Part shown: positions 1,546-55,751 of the stretch, piece by piece
Position numbering within the stretch: the first letter of the stretch is position 1
Layout of the letters: each line of letters opens with the position of its first letter
Origin: Alphaproteobacteria bacterium
GTDB taxonomy: Bacteria > Pseudomonadota > Alphaproteobacteria > MPNO01 > UBA830
Assembly (NCBI GenBank): GCA_965243135.1
Contig: OZ251539.1
Span: 3,520,001-3,584,000 of the forward strand
Direction of reading: 5' to 3'
Length of the DNA stretch: 64,000 bases
Made by a program: the position numbers and the translations under genes
The notes under the pieces: model-generated
What the model saw: only the letters and a program-made list of their open reading frames with translations
The model's database searches: none
What the model was told of the DNA's origin: nothing

Positions 1546-3291
1546 TCAGCGACGCCCGAACAGACGCTCGATGTCGGCCAGATCCAGAGACACGTAGGTA
1601 GGCCGGCCGTGGTTGCACTGGCCCGAATGAGGCGTCGCCTCCATGTCTCGCAGAAGCGCGTTCATCTCCTCGGGCGTCAGGCGGCGCCCCGATCTCACGC
1701 TGCCGTGACAGGCGAGGGTCGAGCACACCTCCTCCAAGCGCTCCTTCAGAGCGAAGCCCTCCCCGTGCTCCGCGAGATCGTCCGCCAGATCCCGCACGAG
1801 AGCGCCGGCGTCCACGGAGCCGAGAAGCGCCGGAACCTCCCGGACGACCACGGCGCCGGGGCCGAACCTCTCGACGACGAGTCCAAGTTCCCGGAATTCC
1901 TCCGCGCGGCCGCAGACCAGGTCGACGGCGGCGTCCTCCAACTCCACGACCGCCGGAACGAGGAGCCCCTGCCGTTCCACGCCGCCGTCCGCGAGCCGCG
2001 CCTTCATGCGCTCGTAGACCAGCCGCTCGTGCGCCGCGTGCTGGTCGACGATCACGATTCCGGATTCCGTCTGGGCGACGATGTAGTTTTCGTGGAGCTG
2101 GGCGCGCGCGACGCCCAGCGGCCCGCCTCGCGGCGGCGCCTCCTCGACGGGGGCGGCGCGGGCGGACGGGCGGTCGAAGCCCGGCAGCGTCCCGGCGAAC
2201 GGCGCCGGAGATTCGCGGACGGGAGGGCTTTCCGGCCTCCGGCCGCCGCCCGGCCGGAAAGCGTCGAACGCGGCCGTCGCCACGGTCGTCGACGCCCGGT
2301 GCCCGGCCGTCTCGAGCGCGCGCCTGAGCCCGCCCACGATCAGCCCGCGCACCAGCGAAACGTCCCGGAACCGCACTTCCGTCTTGGCGGGATGCACGTT
2401 CACGTCGACGGCCTCCGGCGGCGCGTCGAGGAACAGCGCGACCATGGGGTGCCTGTCGCGCGCGAGAAAATCCTGATACGCGCCGCGAACCGCGCCGATC
2501 AGCATGCGGTCCTGGACGGGCCGGCCGTTCACGAACAGGAACTGCGCCCGGCCGTTGCCGCGGTTCAGCGTCGGCAGGCCGGCGTAACCCGAAAGCTGCG
2601 CGCCGCCCCGGTCGGCCTCGACCGGCACGGCGTTGTCCGCGAACTCCCGCCCCATCGCCGCCGACAGGCGGTCGAGGCGCGCGCCGCCGCCGTCCGCCCG
2701 CGGGTACCGAAAACGCTCGCGGGCGCCGTCCGACAGGGAAAACGCGATGCCGGGATGGGCCATCGCGAGCCGCCGCAGGGCGTCGGCCGCGTAGTCGAAC
2801 TCGGTCCGCGCCGACTTGAGGAACTTCAGCCGCGCCGGCGTGGCGTAGAACAGGTCGCGCACCTCGATGCGCGTGCCGGCCCGCAGCGCCGCCGGAGCCG
2901 GCCGGCCCTTGCGGCCCGCCTCGACGTCGATGGCGAAAGCGTCCGGCGCGCCTTCGGCGCGGCTCGCGATGCGCAGACGCGCGACCGCCCCGATCGAAGG
3001 CAGCGCCTCGCCGCGGAAACCGAGCGTGCGGATGTTCACGAGGTCTTCGTCCGGCAGCTTCGACGTCGCATGGCGCTCGACCGCCAGAAGCAGCTCGTCC
3101 GCGGTCATTCCCCGCCCGTCGTCGACCACCGATATCCGCACGCGTCCGCCGTCCTCGAGCGCGACCTCGACGTGGCGCGCCCCGGCGTCGACCGCGTTTT
3201 CGGCGAGCTCCTTCACGACCGCCGCCGGCCGCTCGATCACCTCGCCGGCGGCGATGCGGTTGACGAGCGTTTCGGGCAGAAGGCGGATCAC
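1546..3291 (-). CDS. mutL: DNA mismatch repair protein MutL
   Basis: [55 protein letters not shown] at 3291 overlaps the pgi stop (GTGA). Confidence 0.97.
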
Positions 3292-4556
3292 GGCTTCGCT
3301 CCCGAAAGATAGGCGCGCGCGAGAACCTTGCCCTCCTCGACGGCCGGCTGGTCGAACGGGTCCACGCCCAGCAGGCGCGCGGCGACGACGGTCTCCAGCA
3401 TGAAATGCATCATCAGCGCGCCGAGAGCGCGCTCGTCGACGGCCGGGAGGCGGAACGTCCGCACCGGGCGCCCCCTGTTCGCCAGCGCGGCGGCGGTGGC
3501 GCGCGCCTCCGCGTCGAACAGGTCTCCCATGGCGCGTCCCCGCATGTAGGGCACGTCCCCGGCGAGGTCGTCGGCGACCCGCGGGCCGCCGCCGGCGCTG
3601 TCCGGCAGGATCAGCGTGAACATCTTGTCCGCGGGGCCGTCGAGGTAGAGTTGAAGCTGGCTGTGCTGGTCCACGGTTCCCGCGGCGGCGACCGGCGTCG
3701 CGCCGAGGCCGTCCTTTCCGAGGCTCTCCGCCCGGAGCTGGCAGTACCAGCGCGCGAACGGCGCCAGCCGGTCGCAGTAGGGCATCAGGACGGACACGCC
3801 GCGGCCGAGGCCCGCCTCCGCCGCCGCGCCGCAGGCGGGCGGCGGCGCCTCGTCTCCCCGGAGAACGCCGTCGAGCGCGAACGCGGCGCCCTCCCGCGCG
3901 GCGACCGGATCGAGGCCCGCGATCGCCGCCGGGAGCAATCCCGTCACCGACAGCGCGGAGAAGCGCCCGCCGACGCCGGGATCGTGGTCGAGGCGCCGCA
4001 TGCCGAACCTGTCCGCGAGCGCCGCGAGCGGGCTGTCGCCCGGCTGCGTGACGGCGACCATCCGGTCCCCCGGCGCGCCGAGGGCCTTCCGCATCGCGTC
4101 GACGACGAGCGCGGCCTGGGTCATCGTCTCCGCCGTGGATCCGGATTTGGAGACGGCGACGACGCCGGCGCGGTCGAGCGCGACGGAGTCGAGCAGGGCG
4201 GCGAACGCGTGGGGGTCGACGTTCTCCATGAAATGAATCCGCGGACGCTCGCCGGCAGGCTCCGCGAGGGCGCACAGCGTCTTGCCGCCGAGCGACGAGC
4301 CGCCGGTGCCGAGAACGATCACGTCGTCGAATCTCTCGCGGAACTCCGCCGCCGCTTCGGCGATGGCCGGGAGGTCGTCGCGCCGTTCCGGCAGACGCAA
4401 CATCGGCAGAGAGCCGTCCGCGTGGGCAGCGCGAATCCCGTCGAGAGCCGCGGCGGCCTCTTCCAGGCGCTCCCGGTAGACCGGTCGCGCAAGCCCGCCC
4501 TCGCCGATGGATTCGGCGAAGCAGTCCGTCAGGTTCTGGTCGTAAGGCGCCGTCAC
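3288..4556 (-). CDS. pgi: Glucose-6-phosphate isomerase (short type)
   Basis: [47 protein letters not shown]. Confidence 0.93.
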
Positions 4557-14199: not shown

Positions 14200-15503
14200 T
14201 CGACAATCCCGTCTTTTTCGACGACATGCGTCCCCGCGTCGTGGAAGCACTCCGCGAAGCGGAGATACCGGACATCGACATCTATCTGGTGCGCAACCTG
14301 TATGGAATGCTGCGCATATCGGTATCTGAAGAATTTGAAGACAACCAGGCATGCTTGAAAGCCGTGAACCGCCTTGCAGACAAACTGAGCGTCGCTTTAG
14401 GGACGCACGGCCATCCTCCAGGTCGCCGCTCCCTCTTCGTGAGCGATCACCTGCTGAAAGACCTCGCAAAGACCGCGCAGCCGGTCGAAGGCTTCGGCAA
14501 CGTATTCTGGGAGGATCGCCTGATCACCGGCGAAGACTGGTGGACAATAAACGAGCCTTGCGCGAATGGGCGCGCAAAGCGTTGGACGCTATACTCGATC
14601 AAAGGCGGCGTCGGGCGCAGCACCACCACCGCAGTCCTCGCCCGGCATCTGGCTGGCAAGGGCCATCGAGTTCTAGTCGTCGATCTGGACCTGGAATCGC
14701 CAGGACTGTCATCAGCGATGCTCGACCCTTCCGCGCAGCCCAAATACGGCATAGCCGACTGGTTCGTGGAAGAATTGGTCGGGCAAGGCGACCTTCTGAT
14801 CGACGAGTTGACTGCCGAGCCAACCTGGGCGCAAGAACTCGCGGGGGCGGTGGCTGTCGCGCCCGCCCACGGCCGCGAGCCCGGCGAGTATCTGGCCAAG
14901 CTGGGACGCGTCTACATGCAGAGGGCCGACGCCCCCTGGATCGTTCGCCTCGAACGTCTGCTGACGGGTCTGGAGGCTCGTTTCGACCCTGATTTCGTCC
15001 TTATCGAAAGCCGTAGCGGACTGCACGACGTCGCAGCGGCATCCGTCACCGACCTCGGCGCCGACGTTATGCTATTCGCCACCGACTCGGAGAGCTGTTG
15101 GACCGATTACGGAATCCTCTTCGACCATTGGCGAGACCGAAATCTGGCGGCGAAAATCAGGGAACGCCTGTCGATCGTGTCCGCCCTGACGCCCGAACTC
15201 GAAACGGAACGATATTTGCAAGGCTTCAAGCAACGAGCGTGGGGCCTTTTCCGGGATCGGCTTTACGACGGCGTAGCCAACGCCTTCCTGCACGTACCTG
15301 ACGCTTCCGACGGGAATTTTTCGTTCGGCCTGAACGACGAAAGCGCGCCGCACAACCCGATCGCCGTTCACTGGACGCGCGGACTGGCGGCCGGCACCTC
15401 GCTGCGCGACCTGGAGCGGACCGCGGTGCAGCAGGCGCATGCGGAATTTCTACGCCGGTTCGATCGACTCGCCGACTTCGACGACCGTGGATTCGACCGA
15501 TGA
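14196..15503 (+). CDS. ParA/MinD-like ATPase, KGGVGR deviant Walker A, with N-terminal extension
   Basis: YSIKGGVGRSTT, VLVVDLDLESPG, FVLIESRSG. Confidence 0.85.
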   Translation: MIDNPVFFDDMRPRVVEALREAEIPDIDIYLVRNLYGMLRISVSEEFEDNQACLKAVNRLADKLSVALGTHGHPPGRRSLFVSDHLLKDLAKTAQPVEGFGNVFWEDRLITGEDWWTINEPCANGRAKRWTLYSIKGGVGRSTTTAVLARHLAGKGHRVLVVDLDLESPGLSSAMLDPSAQPKYGIADWFVEELVGQGDLLIDELTAEPTWAQELAGAVAVAPAHGREPGEYLAKLGRVYMQRADAPWIVRLERLLTGLEARFDPDFVLIESRSGLHDVAAASVTDLGADVMLFATDSESCWTDYGILFDHWRDRNLAAKIRERLSIVSALTPELETERYLQGFKQRAWGLFRDRLYDGVANAFLHVPDASDGNFSFGLNDESAPHNPIAVHWTRGLAAGTSLRDLERTAVQQAHAEFLRRFDRLADFDDRGFDR

Positions 15504-15726
15504 GCCAGGTCCCTGACGCTTCCGACGGGAATTTTTCGTTCGGCCTGAACGACGAAGGCGCGCCGCACGACCCGATCGCCGTTCACTGGACGCGCGGACT
15601 GGCGGCCGGCACCTCGCTGCGCGACCTGGAGCGGACCGCGATGCGGCAGGCGCATGCGAAATTTCTACGCCGGTTCGATCGACTCGCCGACTCCGACGAC
15701 CGTGGATTCGACCGATGAGCCAGGTC
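15297..15726 (+). repeat. 215-bp tandem duplication (15297-15511 / 15512-15726) creating 72-aa ORF 15500-15718
   Basis: Direct comparison; six substitutions between the copies. Confidence 0.95.
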
Positions 15727-17650: not shown

Positions 17651-18208
17651 TGGCAGACAAATTGGCCGAAAAGGCCCTAATTCAACCGGAAAGTGCTGAA
17701 GATGGGTCAAGTTCGAGGCGCAAAGAATCCCGGATGATCCCACGTTAATTTTGCGTTGCATTTCCGGGTTTCTTCGTTGGTTCCCTCCGGCTTTCGCGAG
17801 CCGCTTCGGTTATTCCCGAGCCATGGCTTCGAACGGGCACTTGGGCATGGAGGCTTCTTCCGCTGCGGGAGTCCGCCTCGCTCGACCGGACGAGCGGAAC
17901 GCTCCCGTTCGACGGAACCATTGCCTGGAGTTCGGGCGTTTCGCCGCTTGCGGCGCATGTCGTCGCTCGCGTCGTCCGGCGCCTGCAGGCCCGGCGCGCG
18001 CCACGCGCCGAAAGTTCGGGACGCAAGCCCGGACGCCCCACAGGATTTTCGCGGAGCAACAGGCCCGCTCGCCCCCGCGCCGAGGCAAAGAGGGAGGCGG
18101 TTGAGGGAAACGTTCATCGCCAAGCGCTGTCCGCGAGGAGGAGCGGCAGCGGCCTTTCGCGGAAGCGGCTGTCGAAATGTCCGAACGGGACGTCGAACTC
18201 GCCCGGCT

Positions 18209-19729
18209 TCAGGCGGCCTCGCAATCGAAGCCGACGACGTTGCGCTCCTCGCGGCTGAACTCCACCCCGATCAGGTGGACCGAACGACCGAGATGGCGGT
18301 ACTTGTCCGCATAGCCCTTCTCCCGCAGTTGCGCGAGCGCGGTTCCCTCCCGTCCGCGCTCCACCACCTTGAACTCGAACAGGTAGACGCGCCCGCCGGC
18401 GCGGACCGCCATGTCGGCGCGCCCCCGGCTGCCGCTGTCCTCGGCCACCGGCTCGAGGCCCTCCATCAGGAAGCAACTGGACGCTCGCGTAGTGGGCCTC
18501 GTACTTCGCGACGGGGCTGGTCGCGTACCATTGGTGCGGGATGGCGGCGAAGACGCCGCGGAACAGGGTCTCGATGCGCTCGAAGTCGTTCGCCTCCAGC
18601 AATTCGCCCAGCCGCAAGTTATCCGCCTTCTCGCGGGCATGACGCGGGAGCAGCTCTTCCAACAGGGCTTCGCCCAGGCTCCGGCGCACCTCGAGGTTCG
18701 GGTAGCCCAGCCTGTAGCGCCCGTCCTCCTCGCCCGCGATGGTGAGGTAGCCGGTTTGGAACAGAAGCGCCTCCACCGAGATCCTGTCCACGTCGACGGA
18801 CGAAAGCAGGCTTTCGCTGCCGGTCATGCCGTCCAAGTCGGGAGTGGGCAGGTCGCGGCGCGCCAGCGTCTCGACCAGAAAGGTCGGCGTGCCGCTCTGG
18901 AACCAGTACGGGCGGAACTCGCGCCGTCGAAACAGCAGCAGGAGGCCGAACGGGTTGTAGACCCTCTCCGGCCCGCGCCAGTTGTAGCCGTTGTACCAGC
19001 GCCGGATCTCGTCCCGGTCCAAGCCCTCGAGTTCAGGGGCGAAGACCGCGTCCAGCTCGTCGTCCGTGCAGCCGCAGATGTCCGAGAACTCAGGCTCCAG
19101 CGTGATGTCGATCAGGTTGTTCAGGCCAGAGAACAGGCCCGCATGCGAGAACTTGCTCACCCCCGTCAGGAAAACGAAACGGAGATGCCTGTCGCTGTCC
19201 TTGATCATCGCGTAGAAGCCGCGCAGGAAGTCGCGGTTGGCCGCCGCCAGCTCCCGGTCGCCGAGCGCGTCCAGAATCGGCTTGTTCGTCCACCAGCACG
19301 ACCGCCCGCTGCCCGGCGCGCTCGTGCAGCGCCCTTATCAGGCGCCGGAAACGGACCGCCGCCTCGGCGGGGCCCGGTTCGAGGCCGGCCAGCCGTTCCG
19401 TCTCCTCCAGCTGGTCTTCCACGTTTCTCCGAACGAGGTCCGGGGAGTCGAAATTGCCCCCGCCGAAGCTGATCCGCACGACGGCGCGTCGACCAGTCCC
19501 ACTTGCCGTGCACGGCGAGGCCCCGGAACAGCTCCTCGCTTCCCTCGAACAACTCCTGCAGCGTGTCCACCAGCAAGGTCTTGCCGAACCGGCGCGGACG
19601 CGACAGGAAATAGTAATCGCCCCCTTCGACGAGGCGGCGCACATGGTCCGTCTTGTCGACGTAGTAGCAGTCCCTCGTCCGGATTTTCCGGAGGGAGGTC
19701 ATGCCGGTCGGCAGCATGCGCTTCGTCAT
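18209..19729 (-). pseudogene. AAA-ATPase-like + PD-(D/E)XK nuclease protein, frameshifted
   Basis: YYVDKT, LSRPRRFGKTL, LVDE, FVFLTGVSKF, YNGY, YWF.SGTP, GRADM...FEFK...AL.Q...KGYA across three frames. Confidence 0.88.
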
Positions 19730-19831
19730 CCAAAAAGAGTAGGCAGCCGCGCCGGAGCCGTCAAGGAGGCGGCGGTCGCAAGCAGGGCGAATCCAGGAAC
19801 GGGGCGGTCGTTGCCAAGCGCTGCCCGCGAG

Positions 19832-19929
19832 GCGGCAGCAGTGCGGGAAGCGGCAGCAGTGCGGGAAGCGGCAGCAGTGCGGAAAGCGGCAGCAGTGCGG
19901 AAAGCGGCAGCAGTGCGGAAAGCGGCAGC
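19832..19929 (+). repeat. 18-bp tandem repeat GCGGCAGCAGTGCGG(G/A)AA x5.4
   Basis: Read directly; no spacers. Confidence 0.95.
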
Positions 19930-21726: not shown

Positions 21727-22405
21727 GAGCCGTTTGCGCTGTGCCATTTTTTTGTCGGCGGCCGGCCGGCACCCCGCGGACCGCGCCGCCTTCAGAACAA
21801 AAGCGAATATCCGGTTGCCGCGGGCCGCGCCGCAAACCCGGGGCGAGCCGGGCGGCCTGAACGCAGGCGGCCGGATCGGGGGGCAGCGGTCGGACGACCG
21901 CAGCGGTCATCCCGTGTCGCGCACCTGACCGATCAGCTACCGCCCCGACGTTCCACCCGCAAACGCCCGAGCACGACCGCCGTCACGAGACCGAGTCGCG
22001 GACGCATTTACGCCGCGGACATAGTGCTTCTTCATAAGCGTTGTCGAACCGGCTGTAGCTTCGCGGCGGAGCGGCGGTTCGCGCTTCCAAGAGGGGTTGC
22101 CCCTGAAGACTGGCGTGAAGATCCGCCCGTCATGCTTTTCCGGGTCGACGCGGGCGACCGTACTCGCCGGCTTGGCACCCGGCGGCCCGGCGGCATTCCT
22201 ACCCGTAGCGAACCCGCCAGGTTTTTTTGCGCGGCGCGGCCGTTTGCCGCAGGGGGCGGCGTCCGGCCGGTCCTTGGGGTGGAATCTGCGAAAATCGCGG
22301 CATCAGCGCGGAAAATTCGCAGTTTTCCGCGCCCGAGGAAAAATTCCGCGCCCCTGAAAGCTGTCCGCATTTCAAGACGTTACGAACAGCGCACGCGACT
22401 CATCC
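21727..22405. repeat. Non-coding repeated element, copy 1 (res-like site at ~22362-22388)
   Basis: Both ends match the reverse complement of 55405-55751; this copy has ~300 extra central bases. Confidence 0.8.
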
Positions 22406-22457
22406 GCCGCGACCCGCAGGTAGTTGCACACGCCAAAGGTCAGAAGACGAACACACA

Positions 22458-28129: not shown

Positions 28130-28372
28130 GAATCCAGAAGTTTCGATACCAGCGCAGATTGCACGACGCAAACCGACACCGCGAATAATCCGCCGCATGT
28201 TCGAACGGCCGGCTGCTCGAACAGCGTAAACTCCGTCGTCACCATGTTGCGGATGAGGATGGCTACCCGAAGCTCACCATGGTGGTCCAAAGACTCATTG
28301 ACCCGCGCGTTCCATACCGTCAGCACGGCCCGACCGGTGTTTGCTGGTCGGACGCGCGGGTCGGAAATGCCG
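28130..28372 (-). pseudogene. Internal fragment of a conserved protein, possibly restriction-endonuclease-like
   Basis: GISDP....TGRAVLTVWNARVN...LRVAILIRNM.T.EFTLFE; cut at the start of the 2-kb repeat. Confidence 0.35.
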
Positions 28373-28516
28373 AGCGACAGGCTACAGGAAGACCAGCCTC
28401 AATGTCTGAGCGAGCTGCTTCTCCCCGCTGACACCCAAATTATGACCTTGCCTCCCGGCGCCGTGCGCATGCCGGCTATTCGGGTTATGATCGCACGTAG
28501 CGAAAGCCGTTCGACC

Positions 28517-30042
28517 ATGCGCTTCTTCAACACGGCCGGCCCGATCAGGCCCGAAAAGCACTATTGCATCCCGGCGCTGGAACGCCTGGACATGGACGAG
28601 GTGCTGCGGCTCGTTCGGGACGACAAGTATTTTGTGCTGCATGCCCCGAGGCAGACGGGCAAGACTTCCATATTGATCGCCCTGCAGGGTCTGCTGAACC
28701 GGCAAGGCTACCATTGCCTGTACGCCACCGTCGAGGGGGCGAGCACCGCTGGCCAAGACTTGGAGAGAGCAATAGGGACGGTGCTCGCCAATCTGGCATT
28801 CGAGGCGCGGGACGAGCTCGGCGATCCGTTCCTGGACGAAGTCTGGCCCGGCGTTCTTGCCGGGTCCCGATCATGCGTTGATGGAGGCGCTGGCGCGCTG
28901 GTCGCGGGCGTCGCCGAAGCCGCTCGTGCTGCTGATCGACGAGATCGACGCCTTGCAGGGCGGATCGCTGCTCTCGGTGCTCCGGCAGTTGCGCGCGGGT
29001 TACCGCAAGCGTCCGGGAGGCTTTCCGCAAAGCGTGGTGCTGTGCGGGATGCGGGACATGCGCGACTACCGCATGGACTCGACGGGCAGTCCCTTCAACA
29101 TCGTCGCGAAGTCGCTGCGTCTGGGGGACTTCAGCCGGGAGGAAACGCTGGCGTTGCTCGGCCAGCATACCGCCGAGACGGGGCAGGCGTTCACGGCGGA
29201 GGCGCAGGAGACGGTTTGGGAGCAGACCCTTGGCCAGCCGTGGCTGGTGAACGCGCTGGCGCAGGAGGCCTGCTTCGAGAGCGCGGCCGGGCGCGACCGC
29301 TCGCGCGCCGTGACGGGCGGCGACATCGCCGACGCGCGGGAGCGGCTCATCCTGAGCCGGGTGACCCATCTGGACCAGTTGGCGCACAGGCTCAGGGAGG
29401 ATCGCGTGCGGCGGGTGATCGAGCCGCTGTTGAGCGGCAGCGACCGCCGCCGCGCCACCAACCTCGACACCGAATACGTGCGGGATCTCGGCCTGATCGC
29501 GAAAGATGCGCCGCCGCGCATCGCCAACCCGATCTATGCCGAGGTGATCCCGCGCGAACTGACCTTCGAAGCCCAGGACGAGATCGAGGAAGACTCGGCC
29601 TGGTACGTCGGCGTCGGCGGCGGCCTCGACACGGCGAAGGGCGGCGTTCCAGACGTTCTTCCGCGAGAACTCGGAGCACTGGAAGGACCGCTTCGCGTAC
29701 CCGAAGGCCTGGCCGCAGCTTCTGCTGCAGGCGTTTCTGCAGCGGGTGCTCAACGGCGGCGGGCGGATCGAACGAGAGTTCGGGCTGGGTCGGAGGCGCG
29801 TCGACTTGCTGATCGTCTGGCCGAAGGGCGGCGGCGAGCAGAAGTTCGTGGTCGAGTGCAAGGTGCTGCGCGGGAGCCTGGAGGCGACGGTCGCCGCGGG
29901 ACTGGAGCAGGTTGCGGGCTACATGGACCGCTGCGCGGCGGAGACGGGCCACCTGGTGATCTTCGACCGCGACGAGAAGAAGCCCTGGAGCGAGAAGATC
30001 TTCCATCGCTCGGAATCGAACGTCGAGATCTGGGGGATGTAG
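28517..30042 (+). pseudogene. AAA-like ATPase with C-terminal PD-(D/E)XK domain, copy 1 (frameshifted)
   Basis: MRFFNTAGP, HAPRQTGKTS, LLIDEID, SPFNI, GQPWLVNALA, IANPIY.EV, RVDL...ECK. Two frameshifts. Confidence 0.88.
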
Positions 30043-30254
30043 CTGGCAATTTTCCCTCGGACAGCCAAGATTCGCGTGCGGAGGTCAGCCGGGCGGCGGC
30101 TCTCGTCCACACGCCACGGGAACCGGACATTGCCTTGGCAACCACCCTCGTGGACATGTCCGACCGGGCGCGAGAACTTAACCGGACAAGCGGACGAGGC
30201 CGCCGGAAACGAACGAGAAGCCGCGTGGCCATGACGACGTCAAAGGACGCGCAC

Positions 30255-30398
30255 ATGATCGCGCAGTTCACCGATTTCGGCGCGGCGGGCGTCGGCCAGA
30301 GCCGCCCTCCTCCGGGAAGCGCCTGAAGTGCCCGTGATCGACCTGCAGCACGATGCGCCGCCGTTCCGGGCGCAAGCATCCGCCTACCTGCTTGCGGC
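30255..30398 (+). pseudogene. Truncated 5' duplicate of the DUF62 gene
   Basis: MIAQFTDFG...PVIDLQHDAPPF.AQASAYLLAA matches 34724 onward. Confidence 0.85.
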
Positions 30399-30760
30399 AA
30401 CCAAGCCGTACGTTGCGTGGGCGAATGCCGAAAACACGCTGCCCAGCTGCGGTCGGGCGAGACAGGTTGCCGGTCGGGGCGTGGATCGAGAACTTGCCCG
30501 AGCTTTCGCTTCTCTCGCGAAACTCGGCCCGTCATTCTTGTTCGAGCGCCTGTCAACATGATCGACGCACCGGAGGCAAACCCGAGATGCCGACAGCGAT
30601 CGTTCGGCTCACATGCAGATGTCTCCTTCGCCGACGCCGCTCTCAAGATGCCAAAGCGAACGCATCTGAGTTTCGGCGCGTGGCCTCCCCTCGAGGCATC
30701 CTGAGCGCCTCCCGGCGGCGCGCGCCTGTCCGAAAACCGAAAGCCCGCACCTGCACGCGT

Positions 30761-32877: not shown

Positions 32878-32989
32878 AATACATAACCTCCAAAACGTCG
32901 TTGGATTGGCCGAATGCCGCTCAATAAGCACCGTTGCCGTTGCCTGTCAACCAAATAGCATCGTCTTGGTGCAAACGCGCCACCCAGTT

Positions 32990-34878
32990 GACAGGCTACA
33001 GGAAGGCCAGTCCCAATGTCTGAGCGAGGCGCCTCTCCCCGCTGACGCCTAACCGTGCCTCCCGGCGCCGTGCGCGTGCCGGCTTTTCGGGTTATGATCG
33101 TCCGGCAGCGTAGCGAAAGCCGTTCGACCATGCGCTTCTTCAACACGCCGGCCCGAACCGGCCCGAATTGCACTATTGCATCCCGGCGCTGGAACGTCTG
33201 GATGTGGACGAGACGCTCCGGCTCGTTCGCGACGAGAAGTATTTCACGCTGCACGCCCCGAGGCAGACGGGCAAGACATCCGTTCTGCTCGCCCTGCAGG
33301 GTCTGCTGATCCGGCAGGGCTACCATTGCCTGTACGCCACCGTCGAGGAGGCGGGTAGCGGCCTCGAAGACGTGGAACGGACGGTGCGGACTGTGCTCGA
33401 CAATCTGGCTTACGAGGCGCAGGAGGCGCTCGACGATTCCTTTCTGACGGAAGTCTGGCCCACCATCCTTGCCGAATCCGGCCCCGACCTGGCTTTGGGA
33501 ATGGCGCTGCAGAGATGAGCGAAGGCATCGCCGAAGCCGCTGGTGCTGCTGATCGACGAGATCGACGCCTTGCAGGGCGGATCGCTGCTTTCCGTGCTCC
33601 GGCAGTTGCGCGCGGGTTACCGCAAGCGTCCGGGAGGCTTTCCGCAAAGCGTGGTGCTGTGCGGGATGCGGGACGTGCGCGACTACCTCATCGACTCGAC
33701 CGGCAGCCCCTTCAACATCGTCGCGAAGTCGCTGCGTCTGGGCGACTTCAGCCGGGAGGAGGCGCTGGCGCTGCTCGGCCAGCATACCGCCGAGACGGGG
33801 CAGGCGTTCACGGCGGGGGCGCAGGAGACGGTGTGGGAGCAGACCCTGGGCCAGCCGTGGCTGGTGAACGCGCTGGCGCAGGAAGCCTGCTTCGAGAGCG
33901 CGTCCGGGCGCGACCGCTCGCGCGCCGTGACGGGCGGCGACATCGCCGACGCACGGGAGCGGCTCATCCTGAGCCGGGTGACGCATCTGGACTATTTGGC
34001 GTACAGGCTCGGGGAGGACCGCGTGCGGCAGGTGATCGAGCCGCTGTTGAGCGGCGGCGACCGCCGCCGCGCCGCCAACCTCGACACCGAATACGTGCGG
34101 GATCTCGGCCTGATCGCGAAAGACGCGCCGCCGCGCATCGCCAACCCGATCTATGCGGAGGTGATCCTGCGCGAACTGACCTTCGAAGCCCAAGACGAGG
34201 AAGACTCGGCTTGATAGGTCGGCGCCGACAGCGGCGGGCGGGCGGGAGTTCGGGCTGTGCCGGGGGCGCGTCGACCTGCTGATCGTCTGGCCGAAGGGCG
34301 ACGGCGAGCAGAAGTTCGTGGTCGAGTGCAAGGTGCTGCGCGGGAGCCTGGAGACGACGGTCGCCGCGGGGCTGGAGCAGATCGCGGGTTACCGCTGCGC
34401 GGCTGAGACGGGCCGCCTTGTGCTCTTCAACCGCGACGAGAAGAAGCTCTGGAGCGAGAAGATCTTCCGTCGCTCGGAATCGAACGTCGAGATCTGGGGC
34501 ATGTAGTGGACGGCTTCCCCGCAGATCGCCAGAATTTACATGCGGCAATCGGCCGGGCAGCGGCTCTCGTCTACATGCCGCGGGAACCGGACACTGCCTT
34601 GGCAACTACCTTCGTGGACATGTCCGACCGGGCGCGAGAACTTAACCGGACAAGCGGACGAGGTCGCCGGAAACGAACGGGAAACCGCGTGGCCACAACG
34701 ACATCAAAGGGCATACTGCGCGCATGATCGCGTTGTTCACCGATTTCGGCGCGGCGGGACCCTATGTCGGCCACATCAGAGCTGTCCTCCTCCGGGAAGC
34801 GCCTGAAGTGCCCGTGATCGACCTGCAGCACGATGCGCCGCCGTTCCAAGCGCAAGCGTCCGCCTACCTGCTTGCGGC
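32990..34878 (+). repeat. ~1.9-kb direct repeat, copy 2
   Basis: Matches 28376-30398 and runs into the intact DUF62 gene. Confidence 0.92.
33130..34506 (+). pseudogene. AAA-like ATPase with PD-(D/E)XK domain, copy 2
   Basis: Same motifs as copy 1; early frameshift, two TGA stops and an internal deletion. Confidence 0.88.
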
Positions 34879-35455
34879 GCTGACCGGCGCCTTTCCGGAC
34901 GACGCGGTTTTCCTCTGCGTCGTCGACCCGGGCGTCGGCGGCGACCGGGTGCCTGCGATAGTCGAAGCCGACGGACGCCGCTTCGTGGGCCCCGACAACG
35001 GGCTGTTCGAAATCGTCATGCGCCGCGCCTCGAGAGCGTCCTTCAGACGAATCGTCTGGCGGCCGGACAATCTGTCGGCGAGCTTTCACGGCCGCGACCT
35101 GTTCGCTCCGGCGGCCGCCCGTATTGCGCTCGGAAAAGAGGTGGAAACCGAGGAACGCCCCGTCGACGAGGCGCGCCGCCGACACTGGCCGGACGACCTG
35201 CAGGAAGTGATCTATCTCGATGTCTACGGCAACGCCATGACCGGCGTCCGCGCGAATCGGATTCCCTCGTCCGCCGTTATCGACGTCGCCGGCCGTGAAC
35301 TCGCGCGGGCGAGAACGTTTTCGGACCTGCCCGAGGGCGCGGCGTTCTGGTACGAGAATTCCTCCGGCCTCGTCGAGTTCGCCGTCAACCGCGGAAATGC
35401 CGCCGCGACCCTGGGCCTCCGGGTCGGCGCGACCTTCTCGATAAACGCGGCGTAG
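34724..35455 (+). CDS. SAM hydroxide adenosyltransferase (DUF62, chlorinase/fluorinase-like)
   Basis: FTDFG, VVDPGVG, GPDNG, SFHGRDLFAP, YLDVYGN, NSSGLVE.AVN.G. Confidence 0.92.
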   Translation: MIALFTDFGAAGPYVGHIRAVLLREAPEVPVIDLQHDAPPFQAQASAYLLAALTGAFPDDAVFLCVVDPGVGGDRVPAIVEADGRRFVGPDNGLFEIVMRRASRASFRRIVWRPDNLSASFHGRDLFAPAAARIALGKEVETEERPVDEARRRHWPDDLQEVIYLDVYGNAMTGVRANRIPSSAVIDVAGRELARARTFSDLPEGAAFWYENSSGLVEFAVNRGNAAATLGLRVGATFSINAA

Positions 35456-45010: not shown

Positions 45011-46726
45011 CTACTGTGCTGCCGATTCTTGGCTGGGGGCTGTCGGGTTCGCGGCCTCGGCACGCCGCTGTCGCGACCGCCGGCTGGAACGACGACCGAC
45101 GGCGCACTTGCCTGCACCGGGTCTTGTGCCTGTCGCGCTTCCGCCCCGGCGTGCCGCACCTCGCATGTGTTGAGACGGGTGGCGGGCATGGCAGGGGACG
45201 ATTTCGGGGCGCGCTACGGCTACCGCCCTGCTGGAGACCTTTGATGGACAGCATACGGGAGCGAGTTTCCGGGCCGCGAACTGGCGATGGGTGGGGAAGA
45301 CCAGCGGTCGCGGTCGCTTGGGGGGCGCGGCGAAGACACCGAAAGCGGTGTACATGTACGGCGCGGGATGGCGGGAGCACCTGCGGGGGCCCGAACCGCA
45401 TTTTGCGCCGCTGGAGGCCGGGGCCGGCCTGGACCGGAAGAGCTGGGCGGAACAGGAGTTCGGCGGCGCGCCGCTGGGAGACGCACGCCTGAGCGCACGG
45501 CTGGTGACTTGCGCCCGGATCCAGGCGGACGCGCCGGCGTTCACGGGCGCCGCGAGGGGGGAAAGGCTTACTACCGTCTGCAAGCCGGACAACGAGGCGG
45601 TGGAGAACATCCTGCAACCGCACCGGCGCTGCAACGGATGCAGGGGGAGAAGACGGTGTTGTGCGTGCAGGACGGCAGCACGCTGAACTTCGCAAAGCGT
45701 GGCAATGGGTTGGGAATCAGGAACCAGACCGCCGCCGCTGCCCGAGGCCTGCACCTGCACGCCACGGTGAACACGGACGGGTTGCCGCTGGGGGTTCTGC
45801 GAGCCGCGTTCGACGCCCCGCAGCCGGGCGCGGAGAAGAACAAACCTCGCGAGGAGAAGAAGTCGTATCGCCGAGGGTCTTCGCGACAGCGCCGAGGCCG
45901 CCGCGGCTGGCGTGCAAGTGGTCGGCGTCCCGGGAGGCGCAGTTCGTCGACCTGTTCGTCGAGCGGCGCGAGCGGACGCCGGGAGTGGAACTCTTGGTGC
46001 GGGCGAAGACCAACCGCGTTCTCGAAGAGGACGACAAGCTGTTCGACAAGGTGCGGAAGAGCCCGGCGCAGAGCAAGATGACGATCAAGCGTCTGAGCGC
46101 ACGCGTCAAGGCCAGCAAGCAGGCCGCGAAGGCCACCTCACCGTCAGGCCACCGTCAAGCTGCGTTATCTCAAGGTGAAGTTGCCGGCGAAGGGCAAGGA
46201 TCCCGTGACGATCCTGCATGTCCGCGAGGAAAACCCGCCAACCGAAGCTGCCCGGCGGTTCCTGTTGACGACGCTGCCGGTCGAGGGTGCCGCAGACGCT
46301 GAGCGCCGTGGTACGGTTTGCGCTGGAGAATCGAAGATTATTTCCGCGTCTTGAAGTCCGGCTGCCGAGGAACTTGAGAACCAAACGGCCGAGCGACTGC
46401 AACGCGCCGCTGCCATGGTCATCGCCTGGCGCATCCATGGCCCGCCTCGGACGGGAACTGCCCGACCTGCCGCCCGAGCCTCTGTTCTCGGACGTCGAGC
46501 TCTGGGTACTGGCGCTGTTCGCCGCACCGCAAGGATGCGCCGAAAAGCCTCGCGGAAGCGGTTGCTTTGGTCGCAAACCTCGGCGGCTATTTCAAACGCA
46601 AGCGGGATCCGCCAGGCGCGGAAGTGATGTGGTACGGCTACGCCCAACTCGCCGCAATGGCTCTTTTTCGGGAACTTGAGGATGAATATCAATAATGTCC
46701 AAACGCCATTTATGGGGCACAGGCAG
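45010..46726 (+). mobile_element. Degenerate IS4-family (Tn5-like) element with N-terminal DUF4338 domain
   Basis: GW.DD.RR..LHRV.CLSRF, DF.ARYGYRP..LETF, G.SFRAANW..VG.T.GRG; then WAEQEFGGAPLGD.RL..RL, CVQDG.TLNF, IEDYFRVLKSGC, VIAWR, LGGY..RK.DPPG. Ends TTATGGGGCACAGGCAG. Confidence 0.8.
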
Positions 46727-46728
46727 GC

Positions 46729-46950
46729 CTAGCCAACGGCGACCTCGATGCGGGTCACATAGACTTCGCTACGCAGGCGCCTATCGACTTCCTCTGCCGG
46801 AGCGGTCTCGAAGAACAGAGTCAATGCCTCCTCAAGGTTGACGCGAGCTTCGGCTACGGTGCTTCCTTGGCTGGCGACGTCGACCTCCGGGCATAGGGCA
46901 ACATAACCGTCTCCTTCGCGTTCCACAATCGCCGTCAACTGTCTGTTCAT
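46729..46950 (-). CDS. HicB-family antitoxin (orphan)
   Basis: TAIVEREGDGYVALCPE.DVASQG.TV.EA..NL.EA; IS4 end abuts its stop. Confidence 0.85.
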   Translation of the reverse strand: MNRQLTAIVEREGDGYVALCPEVDVASQGSTVAEARVNLEEALTLFFETAPAEEVDRRLRSEVYVTRIEVAVG

Positions 46951-47097
46951 GCCGTACCTCCTTCCTTAAAGACGACTCATTCACCATCCGTTCATAGTGG
47001 CCGCAGTCGCTGTCCAGATCAAGAACTTTTCTTTAGCAGTGAATTAAGGGAATCGAACATTTTCTGGAAACGACAAAGCGTATCTTCGCATATCTCC

Positions 47098-47865
47098 AGT
47101 TCCTGCGCCGTTTTGCTTGACGGGGTTTCGCTTCGCCCGGACGGAGACGAAGAAGCGTGCTGGCGCGAGGCGTCCTGCGGGACGGTCAGTTTCCAGGACG
47201 CGGAGGGCAATCGCTTGAAAACGCTCAGTTTCGGAGCCGGAGGCCGGCAAGGCGACGCTGAAGGCGCAACTCGCCGAAGAGGTCGCCCACCAAGGTACGG
47301 CCCGACCTGAAGGTGGTCGCCGTTGCCGACGCCGCGCCCGACAACTGGACGTTTCTCGACGAGCTACGGCCCGACGAGCGGGCGGTCGATTTTTGCGTGC
47401 GAACATCTCAACGAGGTCTCCGACCGTCGCAAGCAACTGGTACGAAAAGTACCGTGCCGTCCTGCGCGACGACGCCGACAGCGTCGACAAGGTTATCCGG
47501 GCGATCTCCGCGACAAGGCGACGACGGAAACGGCGCTCAAGGTTCTCGGGCGCGAGCTTTTCCGCAAGCACAGGCACCGCATGCGCTACGCGAGCCTCAA
47601 GGCCGACGGTTACGCGGTCGGGCGTCGTGGAGGCCGCCAACAAGGTGCTGGTCAACCAGCGCATGAAGCGGGCGCGCTGGAGCGTCGAAGGCGGTCAGAA
47701 CGTCCTCACCCTCAGAGCGTTGGTCGGGTCGCTTCGAGTCGGCGTGGCGGGCAATGATCGGGGCTGCGAACGACAATCAGGCGCTGAACGCTATCGCGGC
47801 CTGACGGCGGAAATCCCGATTCCGTAAATAAAAACAAGGAGTTTGGCAAAAATAGATCTGCACCC
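47098..47865 (+). mobile_element. ISKra4-family remnant A (5'-truncated)
   Basis: Deletion-riddled copy of 48378-49195; ends AAAAATAGATCTGCACCC. Confidence 0.8.
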
Positions 47866-47869
47866 TTCG

Positions 47870-49195
47870 GGGAATTCGCGGCCTTCCTCAAGGCGGGGTC
47901 CGAGGGGGAGGGTCCCGAGGCGTTCGCCGATTTCGAGCTTGGGTTAGGTAAGCAGGTCGCTGCGCTGTGCCGGACGGTGATTTGCAAATACATCGAGGAC
48001 CGGGACGAGAGGGGAGGCCCGATTCACAAGGACGACAAAGTCTTCTATCGGGCTGCGCGGACGCAGAAGACCGTCCACACGCTGTTCGGTCCGGTCCGGT
48101 ATTTCCGGACGCGATATCGCTCGGAAGATGGGTCGTTCTCGCCGGTCGACAACGACCTGGGCCTGCGGCTATCTCACGAACCCGGCCGCTTATCGCGCTC
48201 TTCTGCTCCTGGACCACTGCACGCCGCAGGAAACGGCCAAACTCTTCGAGGAGTTGGGGGGCATGAACCCGTCGTCGAGCCACGCGTCTGTTGGAGACGA
48301 CGGGCAGTCTCTGGAAGGAAAAGGGGCGGGAAGCCATGGAAAGCATCCGCGAGGCGGAAACGGTGCCGGAGGAGGCGGTTTCCTGCGCCGTTTCGCTTGA
48401 TGGTGTGATGGTTTCGCTTCGCCCGGACGGGGACGAAGAAGCGTGCTGGCGCGAGGCGTCCTGCGGAACGGTCAGTTTCCAGGACGCGGAAGGCAATCGC
48501 TTGAAAACGCTCAGTTTTGGGCGAATGCCGGAGGCCGGCAAGGCGACGCTGAAGGCGCAACTCGCCGAAGAGGTCGCCCACATCCGTAAGGTGCGGCCCG
48601 ACCTGAAGGTGGTCGCCGTTGCCGACGCCGCGCCCGACAACTGGACGTTTCTCGACGAGCTCCAGCCCGACGAGCGGGCGGTCGATTTTTTCCATGCGTG
48701 CGAACATCTCAACGAAGTCTCCGACCATGCGGTCGCAAGCAGCTGGTACGAAAAGTACCGCGCCGTCCTGCGCGACGACGCCGACGGCGTCGACAAGGTC
48801 GGCGATCCGCTATCTCCGCGACAAGGCGACGACGGAAACGGCGATCAAGGTTCTCGGGCGCGAGCTCAGGTTTTTCCGCAAGCACAGGCGCCGCATGCGC
48901 TACGCGAGCCTCAGGGCCGGCGGCTACGCAATTGGGTCGGGCGTCGTGGAAGCCGCCAACAAGGTGCTGGTCAACCAGCGCATGAAGCGGGCCGGCATGC
49001 GCTGGAGCATCGAAGGCGGTCAGAACGTCCTCACCCTCAGAGCGCTGATAAGGTCGGGTCGCTTCGAGTCGGCGTGGCGGGCGATGACTGGGGCTGCGAA
49101 CGACAATCAGGCGTTGCACGTCATCGCGGCCTGACGGCGGAAATCCCGATTCCGTAAATAAAAACAAAGAGTTTGGCAAAAATAGATCTGCACCC
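47870..49195 (+). mobile_element. ISKra4-family element B, frameshifted transposase
   Basis: SLDGVM, WREASCG, VADAAPDNW, DFFHACEHL, MRY...G..IGSGVVEAANK.LV..RMK..GM.W; same terminal sequence. Confidence 0.8.
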
Positions 49196-49345
49196 CCTCA
49201 GAGCGTTGGTCGGGTCGCTTCGAGTCGGCATGGCGGACAATGACTGGGGCTGCGAACGACAATCAGGCGTTCAACGTCGCCTGACGGCGAAAATCCCGAT
49301 TCCGTAAATAAAAACAAGGAGTTTGGCAAAAATAGAGCTGCACCC
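49196..49345 (+). repeat. Tandem duplicate of the ISKra4 right end
   Basis: Third copy ending AAAAATAGAGCTGCACCC. Confidence 0.85.
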
Positions 49346-49499
49346 TTTCGGCTCGCCCCTTCGAGGTCAGAAACGAAACGGCCAAGGGCAGGACACGCCG
49401 CAGGGAGCAGAGGAGCGGGGTCGCCGCGCCCGCCCGGGACGGGGCGATTTCCGTCCGTCTGCAGAGGCCGCATCCGGCGGGATTCCCCGATGCAGGCCG

Positions 49500-49874
49500 T
49501 TACCAATCCAGATGTTTCGCGAGCTTTTCGACATCGGCTACGCGTCTGAGTTTGACATGGTATTCCATCCCTTGGTTGGGCGTTCCATTGAAGTCATTTC
49601 CGAAATCTCTGGTCAGATTCGCTCCGAGTTTCTTTCGGTCGATCCGGGTCAAAGCGTATTTCCGAAAATAGAACGTCAGCGAACTCCGGTTGACGATAAA
49701 GGCGTAAGGCATATTCCTGTCATCATCGTAAAAGTTGCACGATCTTTTGTTACTGGGGTTCCCACCCCATCGGCATTCGCATTTCAGTTTTGAGTTATCC
49801 ACGAGTTCCAGCAGGCGATGATACGCCTTCCGGGTTTCCGGTGCCTTGATATGGTCAGCGAACTGCGAACGCAT
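49500..49874 (-). CDS. Hypothetical protein
   Basis: Lower-GC 124-aa ORF with AGGAGG RBS; no recognised motif. Confidence 0.6.
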   Translation of the reverse strand: MRSQFADHIKAPETRKAYHRLLELVDNSKLKCECRWGGNPSNKRSCNFYDDDRNMPYAFIVNRSSLTFYFRKYALTRIDRKKLGANLTRDFGNDFNGTPNQGMEYHVKLRRVADVEKLAKHLDW

Positions 49875-55404: not shown

Positions 55405-55751
55405 ACCGGAAGAGCCGCGTGCGCTGTTCGTAACGTCTTGAAATGCGGACAGCTTTCCGGGGTGCGGAATTTTTTTACCCCGATTCGGGTACGGAAAACT
55501 GCGAATTCTCCGCGCCGGGACTGCGATTTTCGCAGATTCCACCCCACGGCCGGGTGCCGCCCCTGGCCGCCTGCGTTCAGGCCACGGCCCGGCTTCCACC
55601 GGGTTTGCGGCGCGGCAACCGGATACTCGCCTTTTGTTCTGTGGACTGAGCGCCCGCGAGGCCCTTGCGGGCCGCCGGCGGGCGGGCGGAGCGGCTCGCG
55701 GGGTGCCGACCGGGCGGCAGGCCGACAAAAATGGCACAGCGCAAACGGCTC
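55405..55751. repeat. Non-coding repeated element, copy 2
   Basis: Reverse-complement match to both ends of 21727-22405. Confidence 0.8.

Follow-up and report, generated by a model that had tools for sequence, protein, structure and literature searches.

Small deletions of five or six nucleotides, often bounded by AT, in the repeated DNA of a sponge-associated alphaproteobacterium

What removes short segments of near-constant length from decaying DNA, and is the removal aimed at mobile elements or merely visible in them? The question is raised by positions 47098 to 49345 of the 64,000-nt stretch analyzed here (the window; positions 3,520,001 to 3,584,000 of contig OZ251539.1), in which copies of one insertion sequence (IS), a distant relative of ISKra4, are separated by numerous gaps of 5 or 6 nt. 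An earlier note, made from the letters of the window, attributed such gaps to a distinctive mutational or repair process that is either genome-wide and purged from essential genes or targeted to mobile DNA after the manner of repeat-induced point mutation (RIP). Our best reading is that the process is distinctive, undescribed, and visible wherever selection is relaxed. The host is a sponge-associated bacterium whose genome (G000) is a 6.10-Mb single contig of 65% G+C and 98.8% completeness, the product of a metagenome-type assembly. Repeated DNA makes up 1.14 Mb of it in 475 intervals (19% of the genome). Small deletions can be scored only where a paralogue exists, that is, in repeated, accessory DNA, and the restriction of events to repeats is therefore built into the method.

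The region from 47098 to 49345 consists of three head-to-tail pieces of one insertion sequence, referred to below as the FK family:

47098..47870, + strand: copy A, a 5'-truncated, decayed ISKra4-like IS that aligns to copy B with nine 5-6-nt gaps and one complex site
47866..49195, + strand: copy B, near full length, with three small deletions of its own (genome BLAST and nine-copy alignment)
49196..49345, + strand: copy C, a 150-nt 3'-end fragment in tandem after B (repeat family D4), with the GATAA gap in common with A and a 6-nt gap of its own

The 288-codon frame of copy B, the only frame scored, reaches 33 bits against the NCBIfam ISKra4 model NF033572, whose cut-off is 205, and the element is thus a distant ISKra4-like one at best. 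Each FK copy starts directly after the ...GCACCC end of the preceding copy, an arrangement that looks as if the element had inserted beside its own end.

Alignment of copy A with copy B (MAFFT, 47090-47880 against 48372-49200) reveals nine clean gaps (5 nt in six cases, 6 nt in three), every one of them missing from A, together with one complex site of net 2 nt. This is close to the earlier count of about 11 gaps in about 750 bp, and AT is present in eight of the nine clean gaps, in line with the earlier remark that all but one contain it. The junctions, which carry no strand, are as follows:

47123..47124: A junction, 6 nt TGTGAT missing (A/B alignment; the same gap occurs in six of nine copies)
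47235..47236: A junction, CGAAT (5 nt) missing; at the same AT the 6-nt segment GCGAAT is absent from other copies (alignments; a gap-free contig of run X1 crosses it)
47290..47291: A junction, 5 nt ATCCG missing (A/B alignment; a contig of run X10 crosses it)
47393..47394: A junction, 5 nt TTCCA (equally TCCAT) missing (A/B and nine-copy alignments)
47425..47426: A junction, 5 nt ATGCG missing (A/B alignment; a contig of run X10 crosses it)
47497..47498: complex site at which different AT-started segments are missing, 7 nt in A and ATCCG in B (alignments)
47557..47558: A junction, 6 nt TCAGGT missing, the sole clean gap without AT (alignments)
47615..47616: A junction, AATTG (5 nt) missing; in other copies the gap at this site is 6 nt (alignments)
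47673..47674: A junction, 6 nt CGGCAT missing (alignments)
47721..47722: A and C junction, 5 nt GATAA missing (alignments)
48165..48166: B junction, 5 nt ATTGA missing relative to fuller copies (nine-copy alignment)
48283..48284: B junction, 5 nt CTGAA missing; the undeleted form is found in all four public runs described below (nine-copy alignment and run contigs)
48800..48801: B junction, 5 nt ATCCG missing (nine-copy alignment)

Genome BLAST with copy B returns copies at 88-100% identity with up to 20 gap openings, and nine of the 50 BLAST rows, at 88% identity or more, were taken as FK copies. The fullest FK consensus, with all segments restored, forms one open frame of 470 codons across its whole 1411 nt, which indicates that the short forms are derived and that the polarity is deletion.

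The presence of these gaps in the DNA was verified in data from other studies. Thirteen public runs are listed for 46700-49500, and Logan contigs were compared for four of them, from four studies. The contigs carry 5-nt omissions at 47578, 47942, and 48367 and 6-nt omissions at 47988 and 48927, and in all four runs CTGAA is present behind 48283; these indels match polymorphisms among the genomic FK copies exactly. Gap-free contigs also cross the copy-A junctions 47235|47236, 47290|47291, and 47425|47426, with the caveat that FK is multi-copy, so that a contig may derive from another copy, and that one run may be the source sample. The recurrence of the same variants in four runs from four studies indicates that they are no artefact of this assembly, and sequencing error, which the earlier note had also argued against, does not account for them. 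As a control of the pipeline, 18 copies of a related family in the sister genome G004, 73-99% identical to one another, yielded seven unique gaps: a 6-nt gap, a 21-nt gap, and five gaps of 1-2 nt close to the end of the alignment; none measured 5 or 7 nt.

The same length class dominates across the genome. Besides FK, four families were assembled from BLAST matches longer than 85% of the reference copy, with 124 of 163 matches aligned for F130, 32 of 48 for F26, nine of 49 for F19, and 42 of 47 for F15. F15 and F26 overlap, and removal of 32 duplicate F15 rows and five divergent F26 rows leaves 179 copies in five families. Of the 208 unique deletions in these, 145 (70% of what can be scored) measure 5 or 6 nt:

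Unique deletions by length (n = 208): 1 nt, 14; 2 nt, 3; 3 nt, 12; 4 nt, 3; 5 nt, 58; 6 nt, 87; 7 nt, 12; 9 nt or more, 19

Scored against the majority consensus of each family, before de-duplication and hence with F15/F26 sites counted twice, the 5-6-nt share of deletions is 51 of 70 in F130, 23 of 23 in F26, 23 of 30 in F19, and 35 of 38 in F15. This amounts to 132 deletions of 5-6 nt against five insertions of that length (with the same F15/F26 overlap), from which we take the polarity to be deletion; the insertions show no peak at 5-6 nt, a length found in only five of 65.

The deleted segments obey a sequence rule at their ends. Of 157 events of 5-7 nt, 75 have a segment that starts or ends with AT, whereas a composition-matched null gives 14.2 ± 3.5, with a maximum of 29 in 2000 draws. 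The alignment to consensus and the matched null that the earlier note had put forward as a check thus bear it out: 5-6-nt deletions, and not the 14 of 1 nt, dominate the spectrum, and the anchor lies well beyond the null, as expected of a distinctive process and not of homopolymer slippage. The statement that the gaps mostly contain AT holds insofar as AT is enriched, but it understates the rule, as the AT stands at the very end of the segment and internal AT is not enriched (6 against 9.6 expected, counted before de-duplication). Among the 89 events whose placement is unambiguous, 47 of 178 boundaries read AT inward where 6.0 are expected, no other dinucleotide exceeds 1.5-fold at these boundaries, and just two events have AT at both ends. 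Viewed by site, 72 of 289 AT steps are deleted in at least one copy (19 of 46 in FK), compared with 14 of 157 TA steps and none of 120 GCGC steps.

When oriented with AT first, the deleted segment reads A-T-(C>T)-S-(S)-R. In this orientation, for which base composition was compiled before de-duplication, a purine closes the segment in 91% of 33 5-mers and 84% of 42 6-mers, T follows the cut in 6% of the former and in none of the latter, and C often precedes the anchor A. The same AT sometimes has 5- and 6-nt variants in different copies with the AT boundary in common, which points to independent events and an anchored cut. A second, smaller deletion class is formed by segments that contain TCGA, found in 15 of the 82 events without a terminal AT where 2.8 are expected; in 12 of these 82, AT lies one base beyond the boundary (4.4 expected).

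Beyond the anchor, little else marks these sites. Junction microhomology of 0, 1, and 2 nt occurs in 81, 42, and 22 events, in agreement with the composition-matched null of 80.6, 45.1, and 18.9, and this chance level excludes replication slippage as well as microhomology-mediated joining. No further motif was found within 40 nt on either side of the anchor. A type IIS- or type III-like recognition site at a fixed distance was rejected, as no information lies past the anchor within that range, and replication strand is without effect (105 against 99 events; 16 against 14 among singletons, with a skew-based origin and terminus that are weakly defined).

The DNA in which the deletions accumulate is diverse. 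F19, an IS66 element, has a DruA-like second gene and an 8-bp target duplication, and F26 and F15 are related elements with 9-bp target duplications. In the 2.8-kb IS66 element at locus L057 (G000:C1:5770875-5774085), the second gene has a DruA-type domain (PF14236). F130 is no transposon: an intact copy encodes AAA-ATPase_like (PF09820) and PD-(D/E)XK_9 (PF08011) domains, and with about 124 full-length copies (163 BLAST matches), many in tandem arrays such as G000:C1:1276348-1291892 and 2892180-2903141, it represents an extraordinary expansion of a putative nuclease. Most of the 124 copies are clean, and dead ones can carry as many as 21 deletions, the nearest copy then being 72 substitutions away. 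Further affected DNA in the window comprises:

18111..19866, - strand: decayed F130 member with four small deletions and no long frame left (per-copy counts; family identity from an intact copy)
28300..30500, + strand: multi-copy element (the "2-kb repeat") that differs from its partner mostly by 5-7-nt gaps
32900..35000, + strand: partner copy of the 2-kb repeat (alignment with 28300..30500)

The two copies of the 2-kb repeat differ by gaps of 5, 5, 7, 6, 5, 6, 5, 5, and 6 nt and a few of 1-2 nt, as the earlier note had indicated; the element has at least eight genomic matches and is hence multi-copy and no unique duplication.

Three other repeats are recorded here as observations in their own right. 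An element of about 200 nt is shared, in inverted orientation, by 22267-22406 and 55407-55554, and the two copies differ by an 8-nt AT-started gap (ATCGGGGT) and a 5-nt gap. At 15291-15720, a 215-nt unit is present in two tandem copies that are 96% identical and gapless. A 29-kb segment occurs twice in the genome (G000:C1:483198-512109 and 5533877-5562740) at 98.6% identity, and 13 of its 13 gaps are multiples of three.

The peak extends to repeats of low copy number. From 36 intervals of at most three copies we obtained 32 pairs at 90% identity or more, in which gaps of 5, 6, and 7 nt number 27, 66, and 14, against three each of 4 and 8 nt; gaps of 1, 2, and 3 nt number 56, 38, and 27. A stop-to-stop open reading frame scan of these repeats gave few Pfam hits and was rerun with frames chosen by third-position G+C (GC3). 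The genes encode a TrwC relaxase, a serine recombinase, an integrase, N6- and C5-methyltransferases, a type ISP enzyme, an SNF2 helicase, and ArdC. Decaying genes of conjugative-element and restriction-modification type are thus among the DNA affected.

The amount of deletion varies with the state of the sequence. A pair encoding an Eco57I-type methylase and an SNF2 helicase has, per 292 substitutions, three 6-nt gaps (AT-ended), one of 5 nt, one of 26 nt, and four of 3 nt, whereas in a decaying C5-methyltransferase pair 118 substitutions are accompanied by 14 gaps, mostly of 5-8 nt. Few and mostly in-frame gaps in the one and many in the other are what selection acting on a general process is expected to produce, and sequences still under selection retain few such deletions, in the methylase-helicase pair mostly those of 6 nt, which preserve the frame. 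In DNA released from function, the events accrue at roughly one per 3-5 base substitutions. In an old F26 subfamily of six copies, 23 deletions compare with 122 variable substitution columns, or 10 with 29 when only singletons are counted, and individual FK copies, 33-57 substitutions away from the consensus, show 2-20 deletions. In the young copies (21 of F26, eight of F19) no deletion is seen, yet they have just two private substitutions, so that few events are expected.

The earlier note had further stated that core genes are intact. Long open frames, including that of mutL, are present at 1-10 kb of the window, and it is to this region, the only one looked at, that the statement applies. 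MutL itself (1546-4272) is two residues shorter than in three congeners at a GAT-CTG-CTG stretch, a gap specific to this genome whose placement is ambiguous and which we regard as an anecdote only; its open frame extends far upstream of the conserved part. A hunt for frameshifts by way of adjacent high-GC3 frames gave 265 candidates that are mostly ordinary operon overlaps. Global AT depletion was likewise discarded as a test of generality: at the measured rate AT would, by our own estimate, be depleted no more than about two-fold, and selection acts on most of the DNA, so that the measure decides nothing. The genome is unusual in other short words, with CTAG almost absent (1392 occurrences against 19751 expected) and TCGA, GATC, and TTCGAA over-represented 2.3- to 4.3-fold.

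To what extent the process is common to relatives can be judged from DNA of considerable divergence. Congeners are about 70% identical in core DNA, and relatives overall are 64-80% identical. A search for conspecifics with the F26 transposase in a genome contig collection found only relatives of 43-64% identity from other phyla, and in metagenome contigs the best match to MutL has 65% identity. One congener, G002, is IS-rich, with 37 IS66 matches compared with 0-4 in four other relatives. For an FK-like family of this genome, 20 of 21 matches were fetched and 16 copies aligned for unique events. Pairwise gaps number 83, 137, and 48 at 5, 6, and 7 nt, against 26 and 30 at 4 and 8 nt; among unique gaps the peak is weaker, with 20 of 48 at 5-7 nt and none at 4 nt. 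The length mode thus seems common to the genus in a broader form; the anchor is not. The sister genome G004 (3.8 Mb) harbors about 20 copies of the ATPase-nuclease family, which are intact and therefore carry no information on decay.

Known routes to small deletions were sought among the genes of G000. Ku (PF02735) has no match there, with control genomes positive, and neither has ATP-dependent ligase (PF01068), which is positive in six control genomes; hence there is no LigD. Neither Ku nor LigD, which the earlier note had named as worth looking for, is thus found, and classical end joining of a double-strand break is unlikely. Topoisomerase IB (PF01028, Topoisom_I) also has no match in G000, and UvdE was found in none of 21 genomes searched. 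mutL is present. For NucS, a full protein was not found, the matches being two partial NucS_C ones (positions 2-71 and 34-75 of 124) within 424- and 143-aa frames. NucS-like mismatch cutting in heteroduplex DNA was rejected on independent grounds, as deleted segments are not enriched in variable columns (FK, 13 of 28 against a null of 11.9; F26, 10 of 23 against 10.0; the values for F19 and F130 are uninformative). Scars of target duplication do not fit either, given the 9 bp of F26 and F15 and the 8 bp of F19 (three families measured; no boundaries were found for FK and F130), nor do footprints that add duplicated bases, given the five insertions of 5-6 nt among 65. The excision footprints suggested by the earlier note are disfavored by both observations.

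We tentatively favor the notion that this bacterium, and probably its genus, is subject to a distinctive process by which DNA is shortened by 5 or 6 (rarely 7) adjacent base pairs at a time, and that this process is general, operates on a single strand, and is purged under selection. It would act on DNA generally and be eliminated where harmful, instead of being aimed at mobile DNA; the genome-wide alternative of the earlier note suits the data at least as well as its targeted one. Given the lack of Ku and of ATP-dependent ligase, it probably does not involve a double-strand break rejoined by end joining. A single-strand event appears more likely, in which a nick 5' of the A in an AT step would be followed by loss of a measured 5-6-nt oligonucleotide from the nicked strand; a nick ligase, or the joining chemistry of the cutting enzyme itself, could reseal the strand across its looped-out partner, and the next round of replication would fix the deletion. 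The alternative left to this sequence of steps would be a polymerase that skips a constrained stretch.

Several observations weigh against this account. Its generality is unproven, as every scorable site lies in repeated accessory DNA and the relatives compared share only about 70% identity, with no conspecific in the two collections searched. For AT, the odds ratio comes to 1.25 genome-wide, 1.31 in non-repeat DNA, 1.02 in repeats, and 1.21 in a crude "non-coding" set, and the values of 1.31 and 1.02 are compatible both with purging by selection and with confinement of the process to repeats. One pair of old copies has 11 deletions but only eight substitutions, which hints at bursts and not at a steady process. 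In G002 the AT anchor is absent (three of 20 events, against 2.2 expected), and in G000 about 35% of events lack both AT and TCGA. The molecular steps are conjectural throughout, the searches having turned up no candidate enzyme, and to our knowledge the sealing of a 5-6-nt gap over a bulged strand is no routine reaction.

The competing explanations differ in what they make of these same facts. That a defense senses repeated or foreign DNA and disables it through small deletions at AT steps, as a bacterial counterpart of RIP, is unlikely in our view, and we do not favor it. It would accommodate the finding that all affected DNA is repeated or accessory, the lower AT odds ratio of repeats (1.02, against 1.31 elsewhere), the old pair in which deletions exceed substitutions (11 against 8), and a deletion load that ranges from 3 to 17 among similarly diverged copies. 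The first of these points is a property of the method, and the young F26 (21) and F19 (8) copies, the best substrates of a homology sensor, are without deletions, albeit at low power given their two private substitutions. Targeting also finds no counterpart in the deleted segments, which are not enriched for positions variable between copies, in a distant recognition motif within 40 nt, or in a responsible gene, none having been identified. A related proposal is that the genus carries an undescribed enzyme that nicks 5' of AT, removes a measured 5-6-mer, and rejoins the strand, thereby disabling redundant or foreign DNA that lacks protection, for example by modification, as a deletion-based analogue of RIP; we consider this doubtful. 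An artefact of sequencing, assembly, or alignment is extremely improbable. The genome is one contig from an assembly of metagenome type, in which repeats are hard to polish, and the source sample may be among the runs that match best; against this stand the recurrence of the same indels in contigs of four runs from four studies, the presence and absence of a given deletion among copies of equal local sequence, the G004 control with its one 6-nt indel and none of 5 or 7 nt, and the concordance of BLAST and MAFFT.

A serious rival in kind, even if distinctly unlikely in its full form, derives the AT specificity from chemistry: a small bifunctional genotoxin or metabolite, for instance an aldehyde-type cross-linker, would damage 5'-AT, a nuclease of fixed reach would excise the lesion with three or four neighbors, and mis-repair would complete the deletion. 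Two-base specificity for AT and not TA is typical of small molecules rather than of proteins, and G002, with the length but not the anchor, behaves as expected for a common ruler and a different lesion. UvrC makes its 3' cut at the fourth to fifth bond past a two-base lesion, which would correspond to AT plus 3-4 nt; the 5' cut of UvrABC, eight bonds away, yields 12-13-mers, not 5-6-mers. An enzyme that does nick immediately 5' of a lesion, UvdE, had no match in the 21 genomes searched, and there is no evidence of exposure. Formaldehyde cross-links of adenine are reported to prefer 5'-d(AT), according to a title cited in PMC2579423, and bacterial cross-link repair by way of incisions and opposed abasic sites is reviewed in PMC13705206; the parts of this literature consulted link no such lesions to 5-6-nt deletions. 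Staggered double-strand cuts, by a nuclease that leaves 5-6-nt overhangs or in an abortive transposase attack, followed by overhang loss and end joining, are very unlikely. A fixed stagger would give a fixed length of 5-6 nt, both genomes with the peak are IS-rich (37 IS66 matches in G002 against 0-4; 19% repeats in G000), and Cas12a-type nucleases leave 5'-staggered ends, as stated in the portion of PMC11998249 consulted. The sealing step is where the explanation falters, with neither Ku nor ATP-dependent ligase found and with microhomology, which the Ku-independent pathway uses according to the consulted sections of PMC6054270, at chance level; the earlier note's end joining after staggered cuts is thus not borne out. 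Nor do the measured target duplications of 8 and 9 bp match the segment length, and there is no duplication or insertion peak. The two boundaries follow different sequence rules (AT at both ends in two of 89 events), which makes a symmetric dimer unlikely.

Bacterial indel spectra are taken to be power laws in which single-base slips and microhomology are dominant, and this genome departs from them. If an enzyme is responsible, its activity on DNA would be a new one, anchored by two bases and equipped with its own ruler, and of interest to genome engineering as well as to repair biology; if a lesion is responsible, the deletions would be a readable record of chemistry inside the sponge holobiont. 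Either way, the process shapes the death of insertion sequences and pseudogenes in these symbionts, and annotation pipelines would misread its 5-nt events as sequencing frameshifts. Full-text searches in one limited collection found no bacterial spectrum of 5-6-nt, AT-anchored deletions.

The deletions are reminiscent of several known systems without coinciding with any. Fungal RIP introduces C-to-T transitions and is triggered by duplication as such; there, as here, repeated and mobile DNA is riddled with inactivating mutations, whereas the lesions in G000 are deletions and young identical copies are clean (at low power). Scars of Ku/LigD non-homologous end joining vary in length; they resemble the present events as small deletions without long homology and differ in that lengths here are fixed and Ku and ATP-dependent ligase domains were not found in G000. 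NucS/EndoMS, a mismatch endonuclease, leaves 5-nt 5' overhangs and so provides a 5-nt ruler in a prokaryotic repair nuclease, but G000 has only partial NucS_C-like matches and its events are not enriched at variable positions. The 2-5-bp deletions caused by topoisomerase I in yeast arise in short tandem repeats and require a type IB topoisomerase. They are the nearest mechanistic analogue, with measured loss of a single-strand oligonucleotide that is resealed without end joining, although the deletions in G000 have no repeat context and no Topoisom_I domain to accompany them. Cross-linkers leave comparably recognizable signatures through a chemical specificity for A/T steps of two to six bases, exemplified by colibactin at WAWWTW (PMC13705206) and by formaldehyde at 5'-d(AT) (a title in PMC2579423); the passages of these sources at hand describe no fixed 5-6-nt deletions. 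The closest comparison in bacteria is ordinary pseudogene decay, for which Danneels et al. 2018 (PMC6054270), in the part of that study consulted, describe indel sizes that follow a power law, flanking microhomology, and a mild excess of multiples of three. Small deletions in DNA freed from selection, with insertions rarer, are common to both, and what sets this genome apart is a sharp 5-6-nt mode, 1-nt events reduced to 14 of 208, microhomology at the level of chance, and an AT anchor.

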